NCBI GenBank assembly: GCA_042569365.1
Contig: JBHPHK010000003.1
Location: 3,047 to 67,046, forward strand
DNA: 64,000 bases
Direction: 5' to 3'
From: Patescibacteria group bacterium
GTDB lineage: Bacteria > Patescibacteriota > JAUYIX01 > JBHPHK01
Shown: in pieces, positions 4,991 to 62,482 of the stretch
How positions within the stretch are numbered: position 1 is the first letter of the stretch
Layout: every line of letters begins with the position of its first letter
Position numbers and translations under genes: made by a program
The notes under the pieces: model-generated
What the model was told of the DNA's origin: nothing
Seen by the model: the letters and a program-made list of their open reading frames with translations, nothing else
The model's database searches: none

Positions 4991-6595
4991 ATGAAAATCC
5001 TGGCACGTGCCCAAAAAACTATTCTATCAGCGGCTGTAATCATCGGTGTTTCCTCACTGGCAAGTCGTCTTTTAGGACTAGTACGTGACCGCATACTCGC
5101 GGACAGTTTTGGCGCAGGGCAGCTTCTTGACGCCTATTATGCCGCTTTTCGTATCCCGGACTTTGTTTTCAATATTTTAGTGGCGGGAACCATCGCAGCC
5201 GCTTTTATCCCGGTTTTTTCTAAGCTTTATAATAAGGTCAATCGCGATAAGGCCTGGCAGCTGACAAACTCAGTCCTGACGGTAATCGGAATATGTTTGA
5301 TGGGTCTCGGTGTCGCGCTTTATTTCGTGGCGCCGTACGTTGCCCGATATATCACGCCGGGCTTTGATCCGGAGACGATCAATATGATGATCTGGATGAC
5401 GAGGATTATGCTGCTTTCGCCAGTGATATTTGGAATCAGCAGCATCATCGGCTCGGTCCTAAACGCGCTGCAACGTTTTGTGGCGTATGCGATAGCGCCC
5501 ATATTTTACAATCTCGGTATCATCGTTGGTGCGTTATGGTTTGTGCCGCTGTGGGGACCGCTTGGCTTGGCATACGGTGTTGTACTAGGTGCAATTCTCC
5601 ACCTGCTTATTCAGATTCCGAGCATGGCCGGTACTGGGTGGCGCTTTAAATTCCAGCTTGGACGTGATCTTCCTGAGACGAAGAAAGTGGCAAAGCTCAT
5701 GCTGCCGCGCATTATTGGCGGCGCCGCGACTCAGATCAACTTGATCGTGTCGACCGGAGTTGCCTCAACGCTTGTAATCGGAAGTGTAGCCGTCTTCAAC
5801 TTCGCCAACAATCTCCAAAGTTTCCCGCTTGGCATCTTCGGCATTTCTTTTTCTGTAGCCGCTTTTCCGGCAATGGCCCATGCCGTAGCCAGGGCGCGCA
5901 ACAGCGAATTTGTCGAAAAATTATCTAAGACATTCCGCCAAGTTCTGTATTTGATTGTTCCGGCTAGTATTTTCATTATCCTGCTGCGCGCACAAATCGT
6001 GCGTCTGATCCTGGGAACTGGTGCTTTCGACTGGGAGGACACGGTTTTGACCGCAGCCACATTAGGCTTTTTTGCAGTTTCATTATTTGCTCAGAGTACA
6101 ATTCCGCTTCTGGCCAAGGCTTTCTATGCATTGCATGACACGAGGACGCCGGTGATAGTCAGCATTTTTAGTATGGTCCTCAACGTCATTTTGACTGTTG
6201 TCCTCGGAAAAACTATGGGAGTTGAGGGTATCGCTCTTGCGTTTTCTATCGCTGCCGGCCTAAATATGCTTTTTCTCTTGGGTCTTCTTCGCATGCGCGC
6301 GGGGGACATGCAGGACAAGCAAATAATCATCTCTGCTTTCAAGACTTTAATTATTTCACTCGTGGCCGGCATAGCGCTTTACGGCTCGCTATATTTCTTC
6401 GATATATTTGTCGATACGCACACCTATACCGGACTGCTTCTGCAAACATTAGGCGCAGGCTTAGTCGGTATCGCCATCTACTGGCTCGGCAGTTTTATAT
6501 TTAAAAATGAAGAGGTACCGATCGGACAGTTTATTCGTACGTTAGTCAACAAGCGTCGCAATGGAAAAAATATAAACATAAATGACCAGCCATAA
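4991..6595 (+). CDS. murJ: Lipid II flippase MurJ (MviN)
   Basis: 534 aa, polytopic. N-terminal SRLLGLVRDRILADSFGAG..DAYYAAFRIPDF motif characteristic of MurJ. Confidence 0.85.
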   Translation: MKILARAQKTILSAAVIIGVSSLASRLLGLVRDRILADSFGAGQLLDAYYAAFRIPDFVFNILVAGTIAAAFIPVFSKLYNKVNRDKAWQLTNSVLTVIGICLMGLGVALYFVAPYVARYITPGFDPETINMMIWMTRIMLLSPVIFGISSIIGSVLNALQRFVAYAIAPIFYNLGIIVGALWFVPLWGPLGLAYGVVLGAILHLLIQIPSMAGTGWRFKFQLGRDLPETKKVAKLMLPRIIGGAATQINLIVSTGVASTLVIGSVAVFNFANNLQSFPLGIFGISFSVAAFPAMAHAVARARNSEFVEKLSKTFRQVLYLIVPASIFIILLRAQIVRLILGTGAFDWEDTVLTAATLGFFAVSLFAQSTIPLLAKAFYALHDTRTPVIVSIFSMVLNVILTVVLGKTMGVEGIALAFSIAAGLNMLFLLGLLRMRAGDMQDKQIIISAFKTLIISLVAGIALYGSLYFFDIFVDTHTYTGLLLQTLGAGLVGIAIYWLGSFIFKNEEVPIGQFIRTLVNKRRNGKNININDQP

Positions 6596-8393
6596 CAATA
6601 AACAAAACCAGATTCGCAACGTAGCCTTGATTGCGCATATTGACCATGGTAAATCCACTTTGGCCGATCGTTTGATCGAAAAGACTGGCGCCGTCGCGGC
6701 AAGGGAAATGAAAGAACAGCTGCTGGACCAGATGGATCTTGAGCGCGAACGGGGGATCACGATCAAATTGCAGCCGGTACAGCTCGAGTATTCTTCATCA
6801 AAGGGAGGAAACAAGAAGTATATTTTAAATGTTATTGATACGCCGGGACATGTCGACTTTTCATATGAAGTTTCGCGGACGTTGGCGGCGGTTGAGGGCG
6901 CGATCCTAATTGTGGATGCGGCGCAGGGTATTCAGGCCCAAACGCTTGCTCATCTTTATGTGGCGCTTGAAAGAAACCTAACCATCATTCCGGTACTCAA
7001 TAAAATAGATCTGCCGGCAGCCGACCCGGATCGTGTTGCCAATGAAATCGTTAATATTATCGGAGGAAGTGCCGAAGATATTATTCGTGTTTCTGCAAAG
7101 ACCGGAGAGAATGTCGAAGAGTTACTTGAAGCGATTGTCGCGCGCGTACCGGCTCCCGGAGGAGATCCAGACAAGCCCTTGAGGGCGCTTGTGTTTGACT
7201 CTGCCTACAATACATATCAGGGCGTGATTGCGTATGTACGCGTCATAGACGGTGCTTTAGGCAAAAACGATAGCTTAACGCTTATGCAGAGCGGTATGAC
7301 GACTGAAGCGCATCAGGTTGGCGTCCTTAAACCTAAAATGCTAGAAAAACCTCAGTTAGCAACAGGGCAAACGGGATATATTGTGACGGGATTAAAAGAC
7401 GTGCGTGAAGCACGTGTCGGTGAAACGGTTTCTCACACAAAAAATCTTGCCGCAAAAGCACTGCCGGGATACCAGCAAATCCAGCCCAATGTTTTTGCAG
7501 GAATCTTTACAGACAATCCAGATGACTACCCTGAGCTGACCGAGGCGTTAGCCAAGCTTCAGCTCAATGATGCTTCGCTTTCATATGAAGGAATCTCTTC
7601 TCCAACAGGAGGCGCCGGCTATCGCATAGGAGCCTTGGGCCTGCTGCATCTCGACATCATCCAGGAGCGCCTCAAGCGAGAGTTTGACTTAGAACTTATC
7701 ACAACCTCACCGAGCGTAACTTACCAGGTCATCACGACTACTAACGAAAAAATCACAGCCCGCATCCCATCGGAGCTCCCAGACCCTACTGTAATCCAGG
7801 AGATCCAAGAGCCGTGGGTAGCGCTCGAAGTCATTACGCCCTCAGACTATTTGGGAAACATAATGCAGATCCTGCAAGATCGCCGTGCTATCCAGACTGG
7901 CACAGAGTCTATCGATGACCGTCGCTTGATCGTTCACTATGAAATCCCGCTCGCCGAAATCATCGGGGGACTGTACGACACTCTCAAAAGTGCATCGCGT
8001 GGCTTTGCTTCCATGAACTACAGTTTTAAAGAATATCGCATGGGGGATCTAGTTAAGCTTGATGTGCTGGTGGCTGGAGATCCCATCGAAGCTTTTGCAC
8101 GCATCGTACCGCGCATCCAAACACAAAGAATAGGAAGGCAAATCGTCGAAAGACTAGCAGAGCTCATCCCGCCGCAAATGTTTGCGGTGCCAGTCCAGGC
8201 AGCAGTCGGCGGAAAGATTATTGCCCGTGCCAATATTAAAGCGCAGCGCAAAGACGTTACCGCCAAGCTCTACGGTGGAGACGTAACTCGCAAAAGAAAG
8301 CTCCTCGAAAAACAAAAAGCTGGTAAGAAAAAGATGCGCGAAAAAGCCGGTGGCATTAATATACCATCAGATGTTTATCGTAAGATGCTTTAG
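6582..8393 (+). CDS. lepA: Translation elongation factor 4 (LepA)
   Basis: 603 aa. GTPase motifs AHIDHGKST, DTPGHVDF and NKID, plus the LepA C-terminal region. Overlaps the murJ stop by 14 nt. Confidence 0.95.
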   Translation: MTSHNNKQNQIRNVALIAHIDHGKSTLADRLIEKTGAVAAREMKEQLLDQMDLERERGITIKLQPVQLEYSSSKGGNKKYILNVIDTPGHVDFSYEVSRTLAAVEGAILIVDAAQGIQAQTLAHLYVALERNLTIIPVLNKIDLPAADPDRVANEIVNIIGGSAEDIIRVSAKTGENVEELLEAIVARVPAPGGDPDKPLRALVFDSAYNTYQGVIAYVRVIDGALGKNDSLTLMQSGMTTEAHQVGVLKPKMLEKPQLATGQTGYIVTGLKDVREARVGETVSHTKNLAAKALPGYQQIQPNVFAGIFTDNPDDYPELTEALAKLQLNDASLSYEGISSPTGGAGYRIGALGLLHLDIIQERLKREFDLELITTSPSVTYQVITTTNEKITARIPSELPDPTVIQEIQEPWVALEVITPSDYLGNIMQILQDRRAIQTGTESIDDRRLIVHYEIPLAEIIGGLYDTLKSASRGFASMNYSFKEYRMGDLVKLDVLVAGDPIEAFARIVPRIQTQRIGRQIVERLAELIPPQMFAVPVQAAVGGKIIARANIKAQRKDVTAKLYGGDVTRKRKLLEKQKAGKKKMREKAGGINIPSDVYRKML

Positions 8394-11219: not shown

Positions 11220-11294
11220 TGGAGCCGACGGTGAGATTCGAACTCACGACCTACACGTTACGAATGTGTTGCTCTACCCCTGAGCTACGTCGGC
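11220..11294 (-). tRNA. tRNA-Thr (anticodon CGT), CCA encoded
   Basis: The reverse complement reads GCCGACGTAGCTCAGGGGTAGAGCAACACATTCGTAACGTGTAGGTCGTGAGTTCGAATCTCACCGTCGGCTCCA. Acceptor stem GCCGACG/CGTCGGC, T-loop GTTCGAATC, anticodon loop TTCGTAA. Confidence 0.9.
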
Positions 11295-15563: not shown

Positions 15564-15637
15564 TGGGGCGTAGCCAAGCGGTAAGGCACCGGGTTCTGGT
15601 CCCGTGATCGTAGGTTCGAATCCTACCGCCCCAGCCA
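15564..15637 (+). tRNA. tRNA-Gln (anticodon CTG), CCA encoded
   Basis: TGGGGCGTAGCCAAGCGGTAAGGCACCGGGTTCTGGTCCCGTGATCGTAGGTTCGAATCCTACCGCCCCAGCCA. Acceptor stem TGGGGCG/CGCCCCA, anticodon loop TTCTGGT, T-loop GGTTCGAATCC. Confidence 0.9.
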
Positions 15638-16298: not shown

Positions 16299-16327
16299 TT
16301 GACAGAGAGAATTTATTGTGATAGAGT
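16299..16327 (+). promoter_or_regulatory. Promoter for the lipoprotein gene at 16443
   Basis: TTGACA-N17-TAGAGT with TGa immediately upstream of the -10. Leaves a leader of about 110 nt ending in ccaAAAGGAGGtaagtcaaATG. Confidence 0.55.
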
Positions 16328-20003: not shown

Positions 20004-20032
20004 TTGACAGTTCAGACGGTTTATGATACGAT
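20004..20032 (+). promoter_or_regulatory. Promoter for the GT4 gene at 20094
   Basis: TTGACA-N17-TACGAT with TGa upstream of the -10. The TTG used as the ORF-track start (20004) is the first part of this -35 box. Confidence 0.55.
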
Positions 20033-23596: not shown

Positions 23597-23623
23597 AACC
23601 CCTTGACAAAAAAGGGGTTTTAT
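23597..23623 (+). terminator. Terminator hairpin that overlaps the next -35 box
   Basis: AACCCCTT-gacaaaa-AAGGGGTT followed by TTAT. The TTGACA of the next promoter spans the stem-loop junction. Confidence 0.55.
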
Positions 23624-23631
23624 GCTAAGTT
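23603..23631 (+). promoter_or_regulatory. Promoter for the 23821-25967 operon
   Basis: TTGACA-N17-TAAGTT with TGc upstream. Leaves a leader of about 185 nt and AAGGAGG 8 nt before ATG 23821. Confidence 0.55.
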
Positions 23632-27624: not shown

Positions 27625-27650
27625 ACAGCCTTGACAACGGGCTGTTTTTA
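27625..27650 (+). terminator. Terminator hairpin whose loop carries the next -35 box
   Basis: ACAGCC-ttgacaacg-GGCTGT followed by TTTT. Confidence 0.6.
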
Positions 27651-27659
27651 TGATAGGTT
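27631..27659 (+). promoter_or_regulatory. Promoter for the lipoprotein gene at 27737
   Basis: TTGACA-N17-TAGGTT with TGa upstream. The leader ends aaccaAAAGGAGGataatcctcATG. Confidence 0.5.
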
Positions 27660-52449: not shown

Positions 52450-53136
52450 CTAGAGATTTATCTTAGGAGGTAGAGAATCTTGGGTATCCTGATATCTCTT
52501 CGGGTCATCAATAGTGTGAAAAGGACCATCGTATACATAGGCGTAAACAAGTTTTTTGGCAGCAAGTGAGGGGAATACATCAACTTCCAACGAACTTTTT
52601 GTGTTTTCGGGTATATGGGCGAATATGTCAGGTTCACACATGTATGGTCCCCCAACAGACACCCAGCCAGGTTCTGACCCAACTTTCTCTGTAAATTTAG
52701 TAACGCACATCGAATCCTCTGAAAACTCAACAAATCCATAGTCAGTAGAATCTTTCAGGTACTTCACTGGAAAAGTGACGACCCCTCCCCTCTCCAAGTG
52801 AAATTTTTTAAGAGCGTCCATGTCGATCCGCTTAATCTCATCAGCATTGGACACGCAAAATGTCTCGCTAATCTCATCACGCATAAGATCCAATGCTCCA
52901 CCCGTTCCGCGTTGCTCGGACTCCCCTATTATCGTGAAGTCATACTGAGTTTGTAGGGGCTCATATTGTTCAACAAAAACATTTTTCGTAATAACTATAA
53001 CGTCGTGCCCGCTGAGCTGTTCCAATAAATACGAAATCACCGGCCTACCGTTGATCGGCATCATCGGCTTGGAAATGGTTTTAGTGAGCGACTTGAGGCG
53101 TTCGCCCGATCCGCCTGCGAGAAGAATGACTTTCAT
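52450..53136 (-). CDS. Sugar-phosphate nucleotidyltransferase (NTP_transferase family)
   Basis: 228 aa. MKVILLAGGSGERLKSLTKTISKPMMPINGRPVI, the G-x-G-x-R-L signature of sugar-1-P nucleotidylyltransferases. Confidence 0.75.
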   Translation of the reverse strand: MKVILLAGGSGERLKSLTKTISKPMMPINGRPVISYLLEQLSGHDVIVITKNVFVEQYEPLQTQYDFTIIGESEQRGTGGALDLMRDEISETFCVSNADEIKRIDMDALKKFHLERGGVVTFPVKYLKDSTDYGFVEFSEDSMCVTKFTEKVGSEPGWVSVGGPYMCEPDIFAHIPENTKSSLEVDVFPSLAAKKLVYAYVYDGPFHTIDDPKRYQDTQDSLPPKINL

Positions 53137-55703: not shown

Positions 55704-55783
55704 ATAATACTTCGATTATATCTATATTCGGAGCAAACTCTTTAAAAAAACTATCAGACATACGAATATAAGGAGGTATGTTT

Positions 55784-56107
55784 ATGATCCGGAGATCAGA
55801 AAAACTAAAAATGATCAGACTGTTTAAAGCTATTACCTTTTTAATAGCTACGGGCTCGATTGGAATTGTGATAGCTGCATGCATTTTTTCGGTGGCGATT
55901 ACCAGCAAAACATTAACGCTCCAAAATATGGTTATTCTTTATGGATCATCCATTTTGGTGTATTTATCAGTTGGTCTGGTGGCAATCGGCTGGGTTGTAA
56001 AATCATATATGGCACTTCTCCCATATGGTGATTTAGTCTTTGAGCAGGAATCAGAGAAATCGCCTGGCCATCCGATAAGTCAGGAAGCGCCCGAACCTTC
56101 TTGTTAA
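55784..56107 (+). CDS. Hypothetical 3-TM membrane protein
   Basis: AAGGAGG at 55770-55776 is only 1 nt from the track ATG 55778 but 7 nt from ATG 55784, so the second ATG is preferred. Confidence 0.45.
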   Translation: MIRRSEKLKMIRLFKAITFLIATGSIGIVIAACIFSVAITSKTLTLQNMVILYGSSILVYLSVGLVAIGWVVKSYMALLPYGDLVFEQESEKSPGHPISQEAPEPSC

Positions 56108-56124: not shown

Positions 56125-56156
56125 AAGAGCGTACCATTACGGTGCGCTCTTTTCAT
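56125..56156 (+). terminator. Intrinsic terminator
   Basis: AAGAGCGTACC-attac-GGTGCGCTCTT followed by TTCATTTT. Confidence 0.65.
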
Positions 56157-56186: not shown

Positions 56187-56215
56187 TTGACAAAAGCCCT
56201 CTTATCTGCTAAGGT
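56187..56215 (+). promoter_or_regulatory. Promoter for the SWEET-like gene
   Basis: TTGACA-N17-TAAGGT with TGc upstream. The 85-nt leader ends aaccaAAAAGGAGGtttacggccATG. Confidence 0.6.
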
Positions 56216-56299
56216 AAACCATCCTGCTTAGGATAGGATAAGTTCTTTAAAAACCCCGCAACAGTAACCCGCTCAAAACCAAAAAGGAGGTTTACGGCC

Positions 56300-56965
56300 A
56301 TGGAGTTTGCAGAATTTCAGAACTTCGGATGGAATACGCTCACGTTCAGTTTCCTGGCCACCATCCTCTTTGGTGTCTTGGGAGCTTTGGGGTTGGTGGA
56401 TCAGATCAAGAAAATCTGGAGAAATCGCTCAGGAGAATCGGCGTCTGTGACGTTTGCGATTATCTTCGTAGCTTTTTTTATCGCATCCTTCATCTACGGC
56501 ATTGACAAGCACAGCCTTGCTCTTATTTTACAGGGGAGCATTTTTCGAACCGTTTTCTTTCCGCCCATTTTATATGGTTTGTGGAGATTCAAGGGCTATA
56601 CTTTGTTTGAAAAAATAGTAGCCTTTCTGTGTTCGTCTGCGATTGTTTATATGCTTACTTTGGATGACTTGAAAATCAAAGGCTATATTTTCCTGGGACT
56701 GGGTTTACTTGGTGTTTTAGCAACACTCAAACAAGCTTGGGAAATATGGAAAACTAAAAGCTCCGGAGTTGTTTCAATCAAGCTCATGTTGATCATACAT
56801 GCCAGCTCCGATTTTTGGCTGATTTATGGGATAGCACTACGTGATCACATGATTAAGTACATGTCGCTCGGCTATTTCATTGCCAATACCCTGGTTATCG
56901 TGTTTTGGTTTAAATATCGGACAAAATCTCCGGTAGCTACCATACCAAACAACATTTCATTGTAA
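56300..56965 (+). CDS. 7-TM membrane protein with two PQ-loop/SemiSWEET-like repeats (SWEET-like 3+1+3 architecture)
   Basis: 221 aa. Repeat 1 is GLVDQIKKIWRNRSGESASVTFAIIFVAFFIASFIYGI. Repeat 2 is ATLKQAWEIWKTKSSGVVSIKLMLIIHASSDFWLIYGI. Seven hydrophobic segments. Confidence 0.5.
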   Translation: MEFAEFQNFGWNTLTFSFLATILFGVLGALGLVDQIKKIWRNRSGESASVTFAIIFVAFFIASFIYGIDKHSLALILQGSIFRTVFFPPILYGLWRFKGYTLFEKIVAFLCSSAIVYMLTLDDLKIKGYIFLGLGLLGVLATLKQAWEIWKTKSSGVVSIKLMLIIHASSDFWLIYGIALRDHMIKYMSLGYFIANTLVIVFWFKYRTKSPVATIPNNISL

Positions 56966-56998
56966 AAAACCGCACTCTCTCATGGGCGCGGTTTTTTC
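56966..56998. terminator. Bidirectional terminator between convergent genes
   Basis: AAAAAACCGCAC-tctctcat-GGGCGCGGTTTTTT. Confidence 0.7.
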
Positions 56999-57010
56999 AT
57001 ACCTTCAAAA

Positions 57011-58213
57011 CTATTTCAAAAGTTCGATTGCTTTAGCGAGCTGCGGATCGCGGCCGGCATTGTAGTCTTCTTCAGTTAGAATGACTTCTACATCTGGCAC
57101 GACACCTTTCTTATCAATAAGCTCTCCACCAGGCGTCAGCCATTGGGCTACCGTATATCGCAGGAGAGATCCGCTATTGCCAACAGATTGGATATTCTGG
57201 ACAGAGCCCTTGCCAAATGTTGTGACACCCACTAATGCTTTCGAACGATTATTGTCGCGCAAGGCGCCCGCCAAAATCTCAGCAGCTGAGGCGCTGCCCT
57301 CATCGATTAAGACCACGACTGGAATGTCATGGAGAGAGTTGTTTCCGTTGGAGCGGTATTCTTTCTGTTCGCCTGTACCAAAACGTTGAGTAGTCACCAG
57401 GCTGTTTTCCGGCAAGAACGCCGAGGCTACGTCCACGGATGCATCCAAGAATCCTCCTGGATTGCCGCGCAAGTCTAGGACTAGTTTCTGCATACCCGCT
57501 TTCTCAAGATCGCGCACGGCTTTATTGAAATCACCGGGCGTGTCTTCTCCAAAACGAGTCAGATTGATAACAGCTATGCCATCATCAAGCATTTCAGTTT
57601 GGACGCTGTCCACCTCGATCTTGGTCCGCTCAATCTCGATACTCACCGCTTCTTCTGAGGCAGTGTGCATCACAGTTAGTTTAACAACAGTCCCCTTCTT
57701 TCCGCGAATCAGATCAACTGCGTCATAGACCGACATGCCGGCAGTAGAGGTATCATCAATTCCTAAAATAATATCTCCGGTGCGGATGCCCGCTTTCTCA
57801 GCTGGCGAGTCTGGCAGCGGCGAAATAACAGTCAAAACATCATCGCGGATGCCAATCTCGATGCCGACCCCTTCGAACTCTCCGTCCAGTTCAGATTCAA
57901 ATAAACTTGCCTCTTCAGGTGTAAAAAAGCTGGAGTTCAGGTCTCCCAGGGACGCTACAAGGCCTTTAATTGCTCCGTAGAGCGCGTCTGAGGCGCCAAT
58001 AGGTTGATCTATGTACTCTTTATCCAAAACGTCGTAAACCTCCCAGAAAAGGTTGAAATCTGTGTCAGTGCTCGTGCGCCTGATCAAAGGCTGGCCGGTT
58101 TCTTGTGCTATCGAATAGCGGGACCATAGGTAGCCGCCGGTAAACGATATGATAACGATGATAATTACAAAATAGACTGATTTTGCATTCTTCCACTTCA
58201 GATTCGGGGACAT
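57011..58213 (-). CDS. S41 family C-terminal processing peptidase (CtpA/Prc-like) with a PDZ domain
   Basis: 400 aa. N-terminal TM helix, PDZ (SPAEKAGIRTGDIILGID), catalytic region LDLRGNPGG...DEGSASAAEILAGAL...FGKGSVQ. Confidence 0.85.
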   Translation of the reverse strand: MSPNLKWKNAKSVYFVIIIVIISFTGGYLWSRYSIAQETGQPLIRRTSTDTDFNLFWEVYDVLDKEYIDQPIGASDALYGAIKGLVASLGDLNSSFFTPEEASLFESELDGEFEGVGIEIGIRDDVLTVISPLPDSPAEKAGIRTGDIILGIDDTSTAGMSVYDAVDLIRGKKGTVVKLTVMHTASEEAVSIEIERTKIEVDSVQTEMLDDGIAVINLTRFGEDTPGDFNKAVRDLEKAGMQKLVLDLRGNPGGFLDASVDVASAFLPENSLVTTQRFGTGEQKEYRSNGNNSLHDIPVVVLIDEGSASAAEILAGALRDNNRSKALVGVTTFGKGSVQNIQSVGNSGSLLRYTVAQWLTPGGELIDKKGVVPDVEVILTEEDYNAGRDPQLAKAIELLK

Positions 58214-58220
58214 ATTTTAT

Positions 58221-60158
58221 TTAAGGATTAACTGTAAGATTAAAGTTGCGACGCAAGATAGAATCCATTATAAAATGAGATCCGGACCATTCGCCGTCTG
58301 AGTTTGTGCTGCCAAGTGCTTTGCCTTTTTCAGGCAGCTCAATATTTAAAGATATGCCGGCTTCGGGCAGACCTAATTGCTTCTCCCATAATAATTGATA
58401 GTTACCAGCTTGATAAGTCTGTGCCACAAACGGTGGAAGCAAATAGTTGATGGAGACTGTTTTCGATTTGTTACGGGCGACATTTACAAATCCGCCAACG
58501 ATCGTGTGGTATTCGCCATACTCGACAGTCGGCTCTGAGTCAAAATTAGTGGCTACCACCTTTTGAATATCGCGCGGAAGATAGACTCGCAGGTAGGTAT
58601 GATAGTCCGAAATAAATAAAGGATTACCGCCCGGGTTGGTATAAGTAATTTCTAGCTCAGAGAATAAATCGTCTGTAGCTGTCACGGTTACGCTATAGTC
58701 ATAGTCGCGCTTTAAGACGGAGTCAGTTTTATAGGCGGCGAGGTTGGCGTCCACTATCTGGATGAAATCTTGGTTGACACCGATCTCTAGTTTACCGGCC
58801 CATCCCAAGTCTTCAGTGCTGTACTGTAGTGCGGGGTTGCCTGGGAAGGCAAATAAGAAATGACCCTCTTCGATCGCAGAGCTAAAGGCTTGTGCAAGGG
58901 TTAGGTAGTTTTCGGGCTTGACTGATAAGATTCGTTCGAGAATAAGCTGGTAAAGCTCGTTGATGATTGCTTTGCGATCCTCTTTAAGAATGCCGTGTTT
59001 TTCATAATCGATCTCTACGAACTGCTCGATTGCCATTGTGATATTGCTTGCAGTGAGGGTTCCGATTGGTTCTAAGGTAACAGAACCAATCACCTCCATT
59101 AACTTCTCTACAAAAGTTGGCGTAAACGACATCATTCCCTGATAAGGCAACGCATCCTCATCAAGAGCCTGCTGATAAAGAGACATAGCAAGTGCTGCTG
59201 TCACCGGAAAGTCAGGATTCCAGCTGATATCACGCAGGTGCCACTGCGGGTCGCCGAAAGCATCAGCGATAGGCTGCGGTGCGGGAGGCGTGCTCTCTAT
59301 TCTGGCATCTACATTGAAAACGTCTTCCGATACAAATTTCTTCAAGTGACCGCCCTCGATAGTCAGGTTGCCAATATTGCCGATGAAGCCGCCAGTCGGC
59401 CGCAGTTCATAATTATTTTGGATAAGTACAAGGTACTGGAGGGGCACTTCAACTTCTCCATAGAAGGCCGGGCTCAGTTGCCCCAGGCCCGCTAAGAGCT
59501 TCATGAGCGGAACGAGCTTGTCGAATTGTTCTAGGACAGTATCGCGGGCGTCTGCCACGAAATCCATAGGCTCGCGGTAGCGGATTGTGTCGATTTGCTT
59601 CTCAATTGCCTCTAACTTATTATAGACTTCCTCTAACTCATCTTTATTATCAAAAAGAATCTTAAGAGCTGCATCTTGTTGAAGATCTGTGGAGTTAGAA
59701 TTTAAAATAGGCGCTCCCAGGTCGATGAATCTCTTGGCGATGACCAGAAGTCTGCTTCCCTGCTCTGTTAAGATGTTGGCATTATCAAAAGTATTACCCA
59801 GACCAGGGATGGCACCGATCCAGCTGATTAATCCCAGTCCTTGCTGGGTTTTTAGGAGATCGACCTCAACTTCAGTTAGCTGTGTTTGGAGAGCATTGAT
59901 GTTGTCCAGATTTTCGATATCTGATCCCAGGGTTGAGAGTTTAGCTTGCGCGCCGGAAAGGCCGTTGTAGATAAAAAGACCGCTGATGCCGAGATAGCCC
60001 AGGAAAATCAGAATTACCAGCAATATACCGCCAAAAATCCACCATTTACGTCCACGAGACTTTTCTTGGTAAGAAAAATCATTGGAATAGTTATATCCCA
60101 CTCCGTTTTGCGGTTGGTTTTCAGTATTATAATAATTAGGTGTTTCTAGGGTATCCAC
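58221..60158 (-). CDS. DUF4012 domain membrane protein (second paralog)
   Basis: 645 aa. One TM helix and the signature IQNNYELRPTGGFIGNIG. Confidence 0.75.
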   Translation of the reverse strand: MDTLETPNYYNTENQPQNGVGYNYSNDFSYQEKSRGRKWWIFGGILLVILIFLGYLGISGLFIYNGLSGAQAKLSTLGSDIENLDNINALQTQLTEVEVDLLKTQQGLGLISWIGAIPGLGNTFDNANILTEQGSRLLVIAKRFIDLGAPILNSNSTDLQQDAALKILFDNKDELEEVYNKLEAIEKQIDTIRYREPMDFVADARDTVLEQFDKLVPLMKLLAGLGQLSPAFYGEVEVPLQYLVLIQNNYELRPTGGFIGNIGNLTIEGGHLKKFVSEDVFNVDARIESTPPAPQPIADAFGDPQWHLRDISWNPDFPVTAALAMSLYQQALDEDALPYQGMMSFTPTFVEKLMEVIGSVTLEPIGTLTASNITMAIEQFVEIDYEKHGILKEDRKAIINELYQLILERILSVKPENYLTLAQAFSSAIEEGHFLFAFPGNPALQYSTEDLGWAGKLEIGVNQDFIQIVDANLAAYKTDSVLKRDYDYSVTVTATDDLFSELEITYTNPGGNPLFISDYHTYLRVYLPRDIQKVVATNFDSEPTVEYGEYHTIVGGFVNVARNKSKTVSINYLLPPFVAQTYQAGNYQLLWEKQLGLPEAGISLNIELPEKGKALGSTNSDGEWSGSHFIMDSILRRNFNLTVNP

Positions 60159-60210
60159 AAAACATATTATAACCTATTTTTCCAGACTTTATTAGGGAAT
60201 AATCAACAAA

Positions 60211-60258
60211 TAAAAAACAGCATCGATGAGGATTAGAACCTACAATGAATGCTGTTTT
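60211..60258 (-). terminator. Candidate terminator for the 60292-60537 gene
   Basis: The minus strand reads AACAGCAT-(25 nt)-ATGCTGTT followed by TTTTTATTTG. The loop is large. Confidence 0.4.
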
Positions 60259-60291
60259 GGTGTTTTTGAGAGTTTTGCTTAGCTGAACAAG

Positions 60292-60537
60292 TCAGCAGTT
60301 CACATAGAAGAGTACAATGAGTAAGATGATCACAAGTGACCAGCCAATAACCGGAGGGCCTATTGGATGACGAAGATGGTCATCGTATTTGGGAACTCCG
60401 GGCTCTTTGGGCTCTTCAGAACGCGGCCTTAAGGGTTCATTGGGATTTTTCCCGCAGTGGCAGCAGACCAGTGTTTGCTCTTCTGTTTCCGACATTTTGA
60501 TCATTTTTTTGCAGTGCGGACAGAAAAAAGAAATCAT
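60292..60537 (-). CDS. Small zinc-ribbon protein with a C-terminal TM helix
   Basis: 81 aa. CPHC...CCHCG, then a Pro-rich linker, then WSLVIILLIVLFYV. Confidence 0.4.
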   Translation of the reverse strand: MISFFCPHCKKMIKMSETEEQTLVCCHCGKNPNEPLRPRSEEPKEPGVPKYDDHLRHPIGPPVIGWSLVIILLIVLFYVNC

Positions 60538-60627
60538 CGTGTGCCTCCCTTGGAAAGGATGATTGGTTTTAAAAGAACTGGGAAGTATAGCTTAAAAAAA
60601 TGCATCTGTCAATGCATTTTTATTATA

Positions 60628-61425
60628 TTAATAATCGTTGCGTACTTTACGCGACGGACTTCCTAGATATTTCATGAAGTACTTCCCACCGCTTTTGAGG
60701 TGGATCCAGGCCAGTTTGCGGTTCTTGCGGCTTTCGCGGCGGTGATGGTGTGCCACAGTTACGTGCGGATAGTAGTGTACTCGCCAGCCAGCGCGCCAGA
60801 AACGGCGGCACCAGTCCATATCTTCCATATACATAAAATAGCGTTCATCCATTTCACCGACCTGTTCAATGGCGCGGCGGCGAACCAGAATACAGCCTCC
60901 CACGACCCAGTCAACGTTTTGGGATTGGTCAAGATCTTGATCTTTCATTAGAAAACGATTGACGCGTTTTTGGCCCAAGCCCGTTTTACCAAGCGGGGTT
61001 CTCTGCAGAACCACATCTAGAGGTCGCTGGAATCGTCTTGCAGAATCCTGAGGCGTGCCGTCAGGATGCACCAAGCGCGGCGCAATCAAGGCGATGTCAT
61101 TATTCTCTGGGCGTTCCAGCTCTTCAATAAGCTTGTGTAAGACGCCTGAATTGATGACGATGTCGGGGTTTATGAAAAGAAGATTATCATTTTTTGCATT
61201 GGTAATACCCATATTAACGCCGCGACCAAAGCCGGCATTGATTGGCGACGCAACGAGTTTGATCTGCGAGAACTCCTTCTTAAGCATGGCGACAGAATCG
61301 TCGGGCGAATTATTATCAACCACAATAATATCATCCACTTCTGGATGTGTTTTTGCGATAGACTCTAAGCACTGTCTAAGTAAATCGCGAGTATTATAAT
61401 TAATGATAACGATTGAGATGTTCAT
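60628..61425 (-). CDS. Glycosyltransferase family 2
   Basis: 265 aa. ISIVIINYNTRDLL..VVDNNSPDDS..NAGFGRGVN..FMYMEDMDWC. Confidence 0.8.
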   Translation of the reverse strand: MNISIVIINYNTRDLLRQCLESIAKTHPEVDDIIVVDNNSPDDSVAMLKKEFSQIKLVASPINAGFGRGVNMGITNAKNDNLLFINPDIVINSGVLHKLIEELERPENNDIALIAPRLVHPDGTPQDSARRFQRPLDVVLQRTPLGKTGLGQKRVNRFLMKDQDLDQSQNVDWVVGGCILVRRRAIEQVGEMDERYFMYMEDMDWCRRFWRAGWRVHYYPHVTVAHHHRRESRKNRKLAWIHLKSGGKYFMKYLGSPSRKVRNDY

Positions 61426-61429
61426 AGTA

Positions 61430-62482
61430 TTAATAGAATCGTTTGCTGCTTGAGAAAAGCTGGGCTATTTCTTTCCAGTCAGCTTTTCTGGTCTCCATGA
61501 TTTTGCGGCGCTTTGTGAGTATTATGCCTGTTTTTGCGAGGGCTGAAAACAAGCTCAGGAAGGCCTTGGGTTCAAAAAAGATTTGATAGGCAATCAGTAG
61601 TTTTTCACGCACGACGAGGTAAATGAAATCCTTCCAAAAATGCGGGCAGCGTTCGTTTTTCCAGAAGAGCCAATAGTGGTTGCGGGTGGACATGCGTCGC
61701 AAGAATAAAGATTGCTGTTGGCGGTTTTCTCGAAAGCCTGCAAAACCTGACTTGGTTTTACCTTTAAGGTGGCGTTCGTGTCCAGCGACTGCCTCAGGGA
61801 CAAAGCGTGACTTCCAACCGCGGTGTTGGAGGCGCCAGGCAAGGTCAATATCTTCTAAATATGCAAAAAAATCATTATCGAAGTATTCGCCGTGGTTTTC
61901 ATAGACGTCTTGCAAGGCAGCGGTCCGATATATCGGCACGGCACCAGAAGGTCCCAGAATATCCAGCTTATCGTCGTACTGGCCCTGGTCTTGTTCTCCC
62001 TGTCCCCTGTCTCGATAGCGCCGGGAGCGGAAAATTTCTATACCCGTGCTGTCGAAGCGATCTGTAAAGCGGTTTTCTTTAAAATCGTAGGTATACAGTT
62101 TACAGGCGGCAGAGCCAAGCTCGGGATTAGCCTCCATGACAGCTACTAGCTTGTCGATGAAATCCGGTTTTAAAACAATATCAAAGTTCAGTAGAACAAC
62201 ATACTCTCCTCTGGTTTGTGCCAGTCCAACATTGTGGCCGCCGGCATAGCCGAGGTTCTCGTCATTTTTTAGGTAACGAAATTCAGGATATTTCTCTTGC
62301 GCATATTCATAGGAACCATCATCAGAGGCATTATCGATAAACAAAACATCTAAATTGGGATAGGTTTGCGCCTTAATCGAGCCCAAAATAGAATCCACAT
62401 ATTTGCGATAATTCCAGTTTAAGAGATGAATCGAAACGAGAGGCTTGTTATTTGCGAGGGATTTCTCCATATTTTTGAACAA
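61430..62482 (-). CDS. Glycosyltransferase family 2
   Basis: 350 aa. VSIHLLNWNYRKY..FIDNASDDGS..NLGYAGGHN..FAYLEDIDLAWR. Confidence 0.8.
   Translation of the reverse strand: MFKNMEKSLANNKPLVSIHLLNWNYRKYVDSILGSIKAQTYPNLDVLFIDNASDDGSYEYAQEKYPEFRYLKNDENLGYAGGHNVGLAQTRGEYVVLLNFDIVLKPDFIDKLVAVMEANPELGSAACKLYTYDFKENRFTDRFDSTGIEIFRSRRYRDRGQGEQDQGQYDDKLDILGPSGAVPIYRTAALQDVYENHGEYFDNDFFAYLEDIDLAWRLQHRGWKSRFVPEAVAGHERHLKGKTKSGFAGFRENRQQQSLFLRRMSTRNHYWLFWKNERCPHFWKDFIYLVVREKLLIAYQIFFEPKAFLSLFSALAKTGIILTKRRKIMETRKADWKEIAQLFSSSKRFY

Follow-up and report, generated by a model that had tools for sequence, protein, structure and literature searches.

A probable single-chain, seven-helix SWEET-fold transporter from a Patescibacteria bacterium and its family of fused bacterial relatives

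Introduction

The superfamily of the SWEETs and SemiSWEETs also has branches with other cargoes: amino acids in the case of cystinosin and PQLC2, and nicotinamide riboside in that of PnuC. SWEET homologues with six or seven transmembrane helices (6/7-TMH) have been described in bacteria, and the fusion of two units into one chain can occur in prokaryotes (Jia et al. 2017, PMC5742349). PnuC has also been called a bacterial 'full-length SWEET homolog' (PDB 4qtn), with seven or eight transmembrane (TM) helices in a 3+1+3-like, parallel and pseudo-symmetric arrangement of different helix connectivity (PMC7162841). Here, we analyzed a stretch of 64,000 nucleotides from a Patescibacteria group bacterium (assembly GCA_042569365.1, contig JBHPHK010000003.1, positions 3,047 to 67,046 of the forward strand), hereafter the window. 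The gene of interest encodes a 221-aa membrane protein with two SemiSWEET-like units in one polypeptide, and an earlier note on the same DNA had singled it out from its letters.

The protein is very probably a SWEET-fold transporter. We regard it as probably a 7-TM member of the SWEET/SemiSWEET (MtN3) group with both units in one chain, and most likely a uniporter of a small neutral solute, for which a sugar or sugar derivative is the likely choice. The chances that the cargo is a sugar are about even. Fused bacterial SWEETs were known already, and what is new is a sizeable, mostly Patescibacteria family of such transporters.

Homology of the two halves and predicted fold

The gene and the parts of its product are located in the window as follows.

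56300–56965, + strand: coding sequence of the 221-aa 7-TM SWEET-fold transporter (open reading frame (ORF) list, Pfam, AlphaFold2 (AF2), Foldseek and homologues)
56312–56335, + strand: N-terminal motif E5-x4-G10-W11-N12 (family columns; a short helix at residues 4–7 in the model)
56336–56590, + strand: triple-helix bundle 1, TM1–3, residues 13–97 (AF2 helices and N-half profile match)
56603–56659, + strand: linker helix TM4, residues 102–120 (AF2 model and full-length SWEET superposition over about 208 columns)
56669–56914, + strand: triple-helix bundle 2, TM5–7, residues 124–205 (Pfam MtN3_slv on residues 137–208)

The two halves of the protein are homologous to each other and to bacterial SemiSWEETs. 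BLASTP aligned residues 31–68 of the N-terminal half (GLVDQIKK...FIYGI) with residues 141–178 of the C-terminal half (ATLKQAWE...LIYGI) at 29% identity over 38 aa (E 0.014). These are the two internal repeats quoted in the earlier note, whose strings were exact. When the profiles of the two halves were compared by hhalign, their homology, whose absence the note had named as a refutation, was recovered with a probability of 97% and an E-value of 4e-12. The N-half profile matched EcSemiSWEET 4x5m (E 1.9e-7), and the C-half profile matched SemiSWEET 4rng (E 7.1e-11). The latter structure was also the sole match when the single protein was used for a PDB sequence search (E 0.003).

Against Pfam, MtN3_slv (PF03083) was matched at 36.7 bits (cut-off 23.7) over residues 137–208, that is, by the C-terminal unit only. 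The N-terminal half alone gave no significant Pfam match, and the family profile was needed to place it. The PQ-loop model (PF04193) scored 17.4 bits, under its cut-off of 22.

The hydropathy profile and the AF2 model both show the seven hydrophobic segments in 3+1+3 order that had been read from the 221-aa sequence. In the model, the helices span residues 13–42, 50–70 and 73–97, then 102–120, then 124–152, 160–179 and 183–205. The model built from the single sequence had a pLDDT (predicted local distance difference test) of 52, and the one built from an alignment of 83 homologues reached a pLDDT of 94.1 and a pTM (predicted template modelling score) of 0.88. In the Foldseek comparison of the model with the PDB, AtSWEET13 (5xpd) ranked first (E 8.9e-6), followed by OsSWEET2b (5ctg/5cth; TM score 0.67–0.71), then by cystinosin and the KDEL receptor. 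The superpositions on the full-length SWEETs (5xpd, 5ctg/5cth) covered about 208 of the 221 residues with Foldseek TM scores of 0.64–0.71. SemiSWEETs superposed on one half, with TMt values of 0.84–0.90 and an rmsd (root mean square deviation) of 1.2–1.5 Å. The triple-helix-bundle fold was therefore recovered with SWEETs at the top of the list, and the superposition scores suggest a 1-3-2 helix order and a central cavity. Lys and Arg residues are concentrated in the loops following TM1, TM3, TM5 and TM7. By the positive-inside distribution of these charges, the protein would be oriented N-out/C-in, which is the orientation of SWEETs, and the E-x4-GWN motif would then be exposed outside the cell.

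The proposed mechanism builds on this architecture. Two homologous bundles, TM1–3 and TM5–7, would be joined by TM4 as an inversion linker, so that both bundles would lie parallel in the membrane and one polypeptide would build the pore for which SemiSWEETs need two chains. By homology, the central pocket between the bundles would face the two sides of the membrane in turn, letting a small neutral solute move down its gradient by energy-independent uniport, as the family suggests. The cargo would most likely be a sugar or sugar derivative, which would fit a metabolite-scavenging Patescibacteria cell with a reduced genome. The analysis shows the gene, the fold with its linker helix, the homology of the halves to each other and to SemiSWEETs, and the membership in a large bacterial family; we infer the transport activity, the uniport, the membrane orientation and the kind of substrate.

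Family size and distribution

The protein belongs to a real, sizeable and undescribed family of full-length 7-TM bacterial proteins. HMMER, run exhaustively against 1.84 billion representatives, detected 433 relatives at the E ≤ 1e-3 threshold, of which 265 passed E ≤ 1e-10. The family comprises at least 265 clusters at 50% identity with full-length members of about 210 aa, and nearly all of the 150 relatives listed were 200–225 aa long and aligned end to end. The number of relatives and the full length of nearly all those listed argue for purifying selection and for a real gene. The family was visible in the exhaustive scan only. A word-indexed protein search, whose index saturates on hydrophobic words, returned the protein itself alone for the single query and six proteins for the 83-sequence profile. 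The column statistics given below refer to the alignment of these 83 members, 75 of which matched MtN3_slv and 21 the Pfam PQ-loop model.

The window protein, encoded on an 83-kb contig, carries the NCBI label 'SemiSWEET family transporter [Patescibacteria group bacterium]'. Together with the bacterial fusions of Jia et al. (2017) and the number of clusters, this label indicates that the rarity of the fused form in prokaryotes had been overstated in the earlier note.

Family members with an organism label were mostly Patescibacteria, and ten representatives that were looked up were metagenomic singletons. Four genome loci and nine metagenome loci were found via one peptide pattern derived from a 10-sequence alignment, and the taxonomic range is therefore poorly sampled. 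The species-representative (GTDB) genomes contributed the four genome loci, three of them from Patescibacteria lineages: the metagenome-assembled genomes (MAGs) were those of Magasanikiibacteriota, Patescibacteria and Saccharibacteria, plus one labelled Gammaproteobacteria. This last MAG (CAZAOV010000001.1, uncultured Gammaproteobacteria; locus L004) contains three tandem head-to-tail paralogues of 254, 215 and 212 aa at 5561–7584, so that, provided the MAG label is correct, the family would extend beyond Patescibacteria. The three paralogues adjoin a 7TM-PAS histidine kinase with its response regulator and an IS200-like transposase. In the six-frame translation of the window, a search with the half-HMMs detected no paralogue and no stand-alone SemiSWEET. 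A literature search on SemiSWEETs in Patescibacteria, CPR (candidate phyla radiation) or Saccharibacteria listed no paper in which SemiSWEET is named.

Genomic context and a possible role in glycan assembly

A cell-envelope gene set flanks the transporter gene in the window, at 57011–62482 (− strand) and 52450–53136 (− strand). Its products are a PDZ-containing S41 C-terminal processing peptidase, a DUF4012 protein of 645 aa, a sugar nucleotidyltransferase and a pair of GT2 glycosyltransferases. In a Saccharibacteria MAG (CAZNNT010000001.1; locus L003, 2349–8977), the homologue at 6001–6660 is co-directional within a nucleotide-sugar modification cluster that contains a DegT aminotransferase, a Polysacc_synt_2 dehydratase, an SDR, a methyltransferase and an epimerase/dehydratase. 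At another locus (L007), genes for a GT2 glycosyltransferase and a polysaccharide deacetylase lie downstream of the homologue in the same orientation.

These neighbours, including the two GT2 genes, the DUF4012 gene and the sugar nucleotidyltransferase gene that lie 3–6 kb away in the window, would suit a protein of envelope glycan assembly that moves a sugar precursor for the neighbouring glycosyltransferases or flips their lipid-linked sugar instead of supplying central metabolism. However, such an association occurs in about three of 14 loci, and the neighbours elsewhere are unrelated. The window gene is monocistronic, and two convergent genes separate it from the GT2 genes. We know of no SWEET-fold protein that has been shown to flip lipid-linked sugars. 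Because the glycan-related neighbours are too few, we retain this role as a minor and quite improbable rival of solute uniport.

Conserved residues and points against the assignment

The Gln of the PQ motif is retained in both bundles, with Q35 present in all 83 members and Q145 in 90%. The preceding residues in the window protein are D34 and K144, as had been read from the sequence earlier, and the protein lacks a PQ dipeptide. The gate Tyr-Gly (Y66-G67) and Y176 are 95–96% conserved, and D182 is present in 61% of members. W173 is found in 99% and is aligned on the pocket Trp of 4rng and 4qnc (W48 in 4qnc numbering). With reference to LbSemiSWEET, Y66/Y176, W173 and D182 align with Y51, W48 and D57, respectively. 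A further motif before TM1 is specific to the family: E5 occurs in 79 of 83 members (95%), G10 in 78 and N12 in 78 (94%), and W11 is also part of it.

The pocket is less uniform. The bundle-1 counterpart of the pocket Trp is S63, which is variable across the family. The pocket Asn of bundle 2 corresponds to position 189, where 29% of members have Asn and the window protein has Ser; the alignment to 4qnc puts the profile Asn 189 on N64. The pocket Asn of bundle 1 falls at about position 78, with a register uncertain by one residue, where 48% of members have Asn and the window protein has Gln. Both pocket Asn residues occur together in 16 of the 83 members and in none of the ten closest relatives. 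As judged from these alignments, the pocket is asymmetric, with the Trp retained in bundle 2 alone and, in the window protein, Gln and Ser in place of the Asn pair. Fusion into one chain would leave the pocket free to become asymmetric.

Several results weigh against a sugar uniporter of the SWEET type. Pro stands at the canonical hinge site in none of the 83 members in bundle 1 and in two of 83 in bundle 2, and the window protein lacks Pro in TM1, TM2, TM5 and TM6. In EcSemiSWEET, the P21A mutation nearly abolishes sucrose uptake and Q22A has a mild effect (PMC4309421), which is why the missing hinge Pro counts against the assignment; the conservation of Pro and Gln in the 7-TM family is the reverse of their importance in EcSemiSWEET. 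The pocket Trp/Asn pairs (W50/N66 in EcSemiSWEET) are not kept, the window protein having S63, Q78, W173 and S189, as mapped through sequence alignments to 4qnc, 4rng and 4x5m. The NCBIfam model SemiSWEET_2 (NF037968) scored 45.9 bits over two stretches, under its cut-off of 80. Finally, all-against-all BLASTP across the loci detected no conserved neighbourhood, Pfam annotation of 13 loci no recurring partner, and the surroundings of the examined loci no sugar-catabolic partner gene, so that nothing independent indicates sugar. Because the pocket is asymmetric and variable and the hinge Pro is absent, the details of substrate and gating probably differ from those of characterised SemiSWEETs.

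Loss of the hinge Pro might mean that the protein no longer transports and serves instead, like the KDEL receptor, as a receptor or a regulator in the membrane. The protein indeed lacks the Pro on which EcSemiSWEET depends, and the KDEL receptor has the same fold (Foldseek TM score of about 0.6). Nevertheless, we consider this very improbable: the family strongly conserves W173 and both gate Tyr residues, most members retain the gate Asp D182, the best structural matches are transporters, and no extra soluble domains are present. In addition, 59 of the 83 members (71%) have Pro at the position after Q145, where it could serve as a hinge; the window protein has A146 there.

A second rival keeps the fold and the transport but changes the cargo to another metabolite that the cell cannot make, such as a nucleoside, a vitamin, an amino acid or an organic acid. 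Most of the canonical sugar-pocket residues are replaced, in ways that differ among members, cystinosin and the KDEL receptor are significant structural neighbours, and about a quarter of the aligned members (the 21 noted above) match the PQ-loop model. One homologue adjoins a nicotinate phosphoribosyltransferase gene and another a thymidylate synthase gene, and neither arrangement recurs. On the other side, the protein is nearest in sequence and structure to SWEETs and SemiSWEETs rather than to cystinosin or PnuC, its PQ-loop score is sub-threshold, no member matches the PnuC family, the 50 Foldseek matches listed include no PnuC structure, and W173 and the gate Tyr are kept. Therefore, we judge a non-sugar cargo of this kind to be unlikely.

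A more far-reaching reading takes the family as an independent bacterial invention of the 3+1+3 architecture, which then dropped the hinge Pro, kept the invariant Gln, settled on an asymmetric pocket with one Trp and variable polar residues, gained the extracellular E-x4-GWN motif, and modified its gating for a non-canonical cargo, for example an amino-sugar, a deoxy-sugar or another host-derived metabolite. Taken as a whole, this reading is speculative and rather unlikely. If true, the family would be a natural model, in a prokaryote, of the path from SemiSWEETs to SWEETs.

Uptake of host sugar by such a uniporter would be plausible in a Patescibacteria bacterium, although the canonical sugar-pocket and hinge residues are not conserved. 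Few nutrient importers can be recognised in Patescibacteria, which depend on other cells for metabolites. Hence, a widespread, energy-independent carrier of the SWEET type would be a concrete candidate for part of their uptake. The practical value is modest until the substrate is measured.

Transcription unit

The elements around the coding sequence are listed below.

56187–56215, + strand: candidate promoter read from the sequence, with −35 TTGACA at 56187–56192, a 17-nt spacer and an extended −10 TGcTAAGGT at 56207–56215
56222–56299, + strand: 5' leader of about 78 nt, its start placed from the promoter position
56284–56291, + strand: Shine-Dalgarno sequence AAGGAGGT, with the ATG 8 nt further on
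56961–56999, serving both strands: hairpin flanked by an A-run and a T-run, an intrinsic terminator (RNA fold)

The transporter gene is its own, monocistronic transcription unit. An upstream intrinsic terminator at 56125–56151 isolates it. The hairpin at 56961–56999 (ΔG −17.5 kcal/mol, z-score −5.67, equalled by none of 200 shuffles) is common to the transporter gene and the convergent S41 peptidase gene (57011–58213, − strand).

The promoter and the Shine-Dalgarno sequence described in the earlier note are both present at the gene. A generic promoter scanner did not include the site at 56187–56215 in its output because its −10 hexamer agrees with TATAAT at only three of six positions. The pattern TTGACA-N16-18-TAnnnT occurs nine times in the window, compared with 1.75 expected, and none of 100 shuffles reached nine. 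Several of the nine copies have a TGnTA extended −10, and most lie directly upstream of ORFs. Since the pattern is enriched, the TGnTA element recurs and the sites precede ORFs, the promoter of the transporter gene looks genuine for this organism, which appears to use a recurring form of TTGACA, 17 nt and an extended −10 TGnTA(A/G)nnT. On the + strand, sites of the form TTGACA-N17-TGnTA(A/G)nnT are found at 16299–16327, 20004–20032, 23603–23631, 27631–27659 and 56187–56215. A TTGACA-N16-TATTTT site at 56502–56529 (+ strand), within the transporter coding sequence, is probably a chance match.

The 78-nt leader has no Rfam family, as its best matches were far under the gathering scores, and its folding z-score of +1.04 was no better than that of shuffles. 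The leader thus gives no indication of a riboswitch, and this possibility was rejected. The sole Rfam matches above the gathering score in the window are two tRNA genes, at 11223–11294 (− strand) and 15564–15634 (+ strand). A 109-aa hydrophobic ORF (55778–56107, + strand) without a Pfam match separates the L27 gene from the transporter gene and is followed by the terminator at 56125–56151.

Origin and comparison with known systems

The half-HMMs scored four bacterial SemiSWEETs at 28–46 bits, the halves of AtSWEET13 at 12–30 bits and their own partner halves at a median of 20–23 bits. The higher scores for SemiSWEETs than for AtSWEET13, the one plant SWEET compared, argue for a bacterial fusion and not a recent import from a eukaryote. 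The half-HMM comparison thus points to an independent bacterial fusion rather than a transfer. Each half also gave a better score with SemiSWEETs than with its partner half, a pattern that fits a fusion of two different SemiSWEETs and equally an internal duplication followed by rapid divergence. The family would represent the second or third bacterial case in which SemiSWEETs were fused into a 7-TM protein, seemingly independently of the eukaryotic event. This makes it useful as a bacterial model of SWEET evolution, in which the freedom gained by fusion, including an asymmetric pocket and a missing hinge Pro, can be explored.

Two described families were considered and rejected. PnuC membership was rejected because no PnuC model was among the 11 Pfam families matched by the 83 members (E ≤ 0.01) and no PnuC structure appeared among the 50 Foldseek matches listed. 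The PQ-loop family of cystinosin and PQLC2 was rejected by the sub-threshold profile score, the lack of a PQ dipeptide, and the rank of cystinosin below the SWEETs.

A0Y0J1 of Alteromonadales TW-7 (Jia et al. 2017, PMC5742349) likewise consists of two fused SemiSWEET-like units in about 204 aa. Membership in the same family was rejected, as no relationship was detectable at profile level, with an hhalign probability of 2.3% (the A0Y0J1 sequence was taken from an OCR'd (optically recognised) supplement, with one letter corrected). On this comparison, A0Y0J1 and the window protein belong to separate families that probably arose from separate fusion events. Three metagenomic proteins of 209 aa (P0151–P0153), also with two fused units, represent a further bacterial 7-TM family that is distantly related to the window family and aligns with it over both halves (hhalign 94.8%, E 4.9e-8). 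They differ in having the canonical Pro-Gln in both units and in matching both the Pfam PQ-loop and MtN3_slv models. At one locus of this canonical-PQ family (L008, 6001–6630), the gene adjoins FUR, ZnuA/ABC and acyl-CoA dehydrogenase genes.

The eukaryotic SWEETs AtSWEET13 (5xpd) and OsSWEET2b (5ctg/5cth) share with the window protein the 3+1+3 architecture, the parallel bundles joined by TM4 and a similar size. However, identity is only 14–19%, and Pfam finds one MtN3_slv repeat here, not two. SWEETs reportedly have a conserved proline tetrad at TM1, TM2, TM5 and TM6 (an observation attributed to Tao et al., 2015), whereas the window protein has Pro in none of these helices and the 7-TM family has not kept the pocket Trp/Asn pairs.

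The bacterial SemiSWEETs (4rng, 4qnc, 4x5m and 9kax) have 3 TM helices and are homodimeric, and each half of the window protein is homologous to them and superposes on them. The PQ-motif Gln, the gate Tyr-Gly and the pocket Trp, the last in bundle 2 only, are common to both groups. In contrast to SemiSWEETs, the two units of the 7-TM family are fused via a linker helix, the hinge Pro is absent or displaced to the position after the Gln, and the N-terminus carries the additional E-x4-GWN motif.

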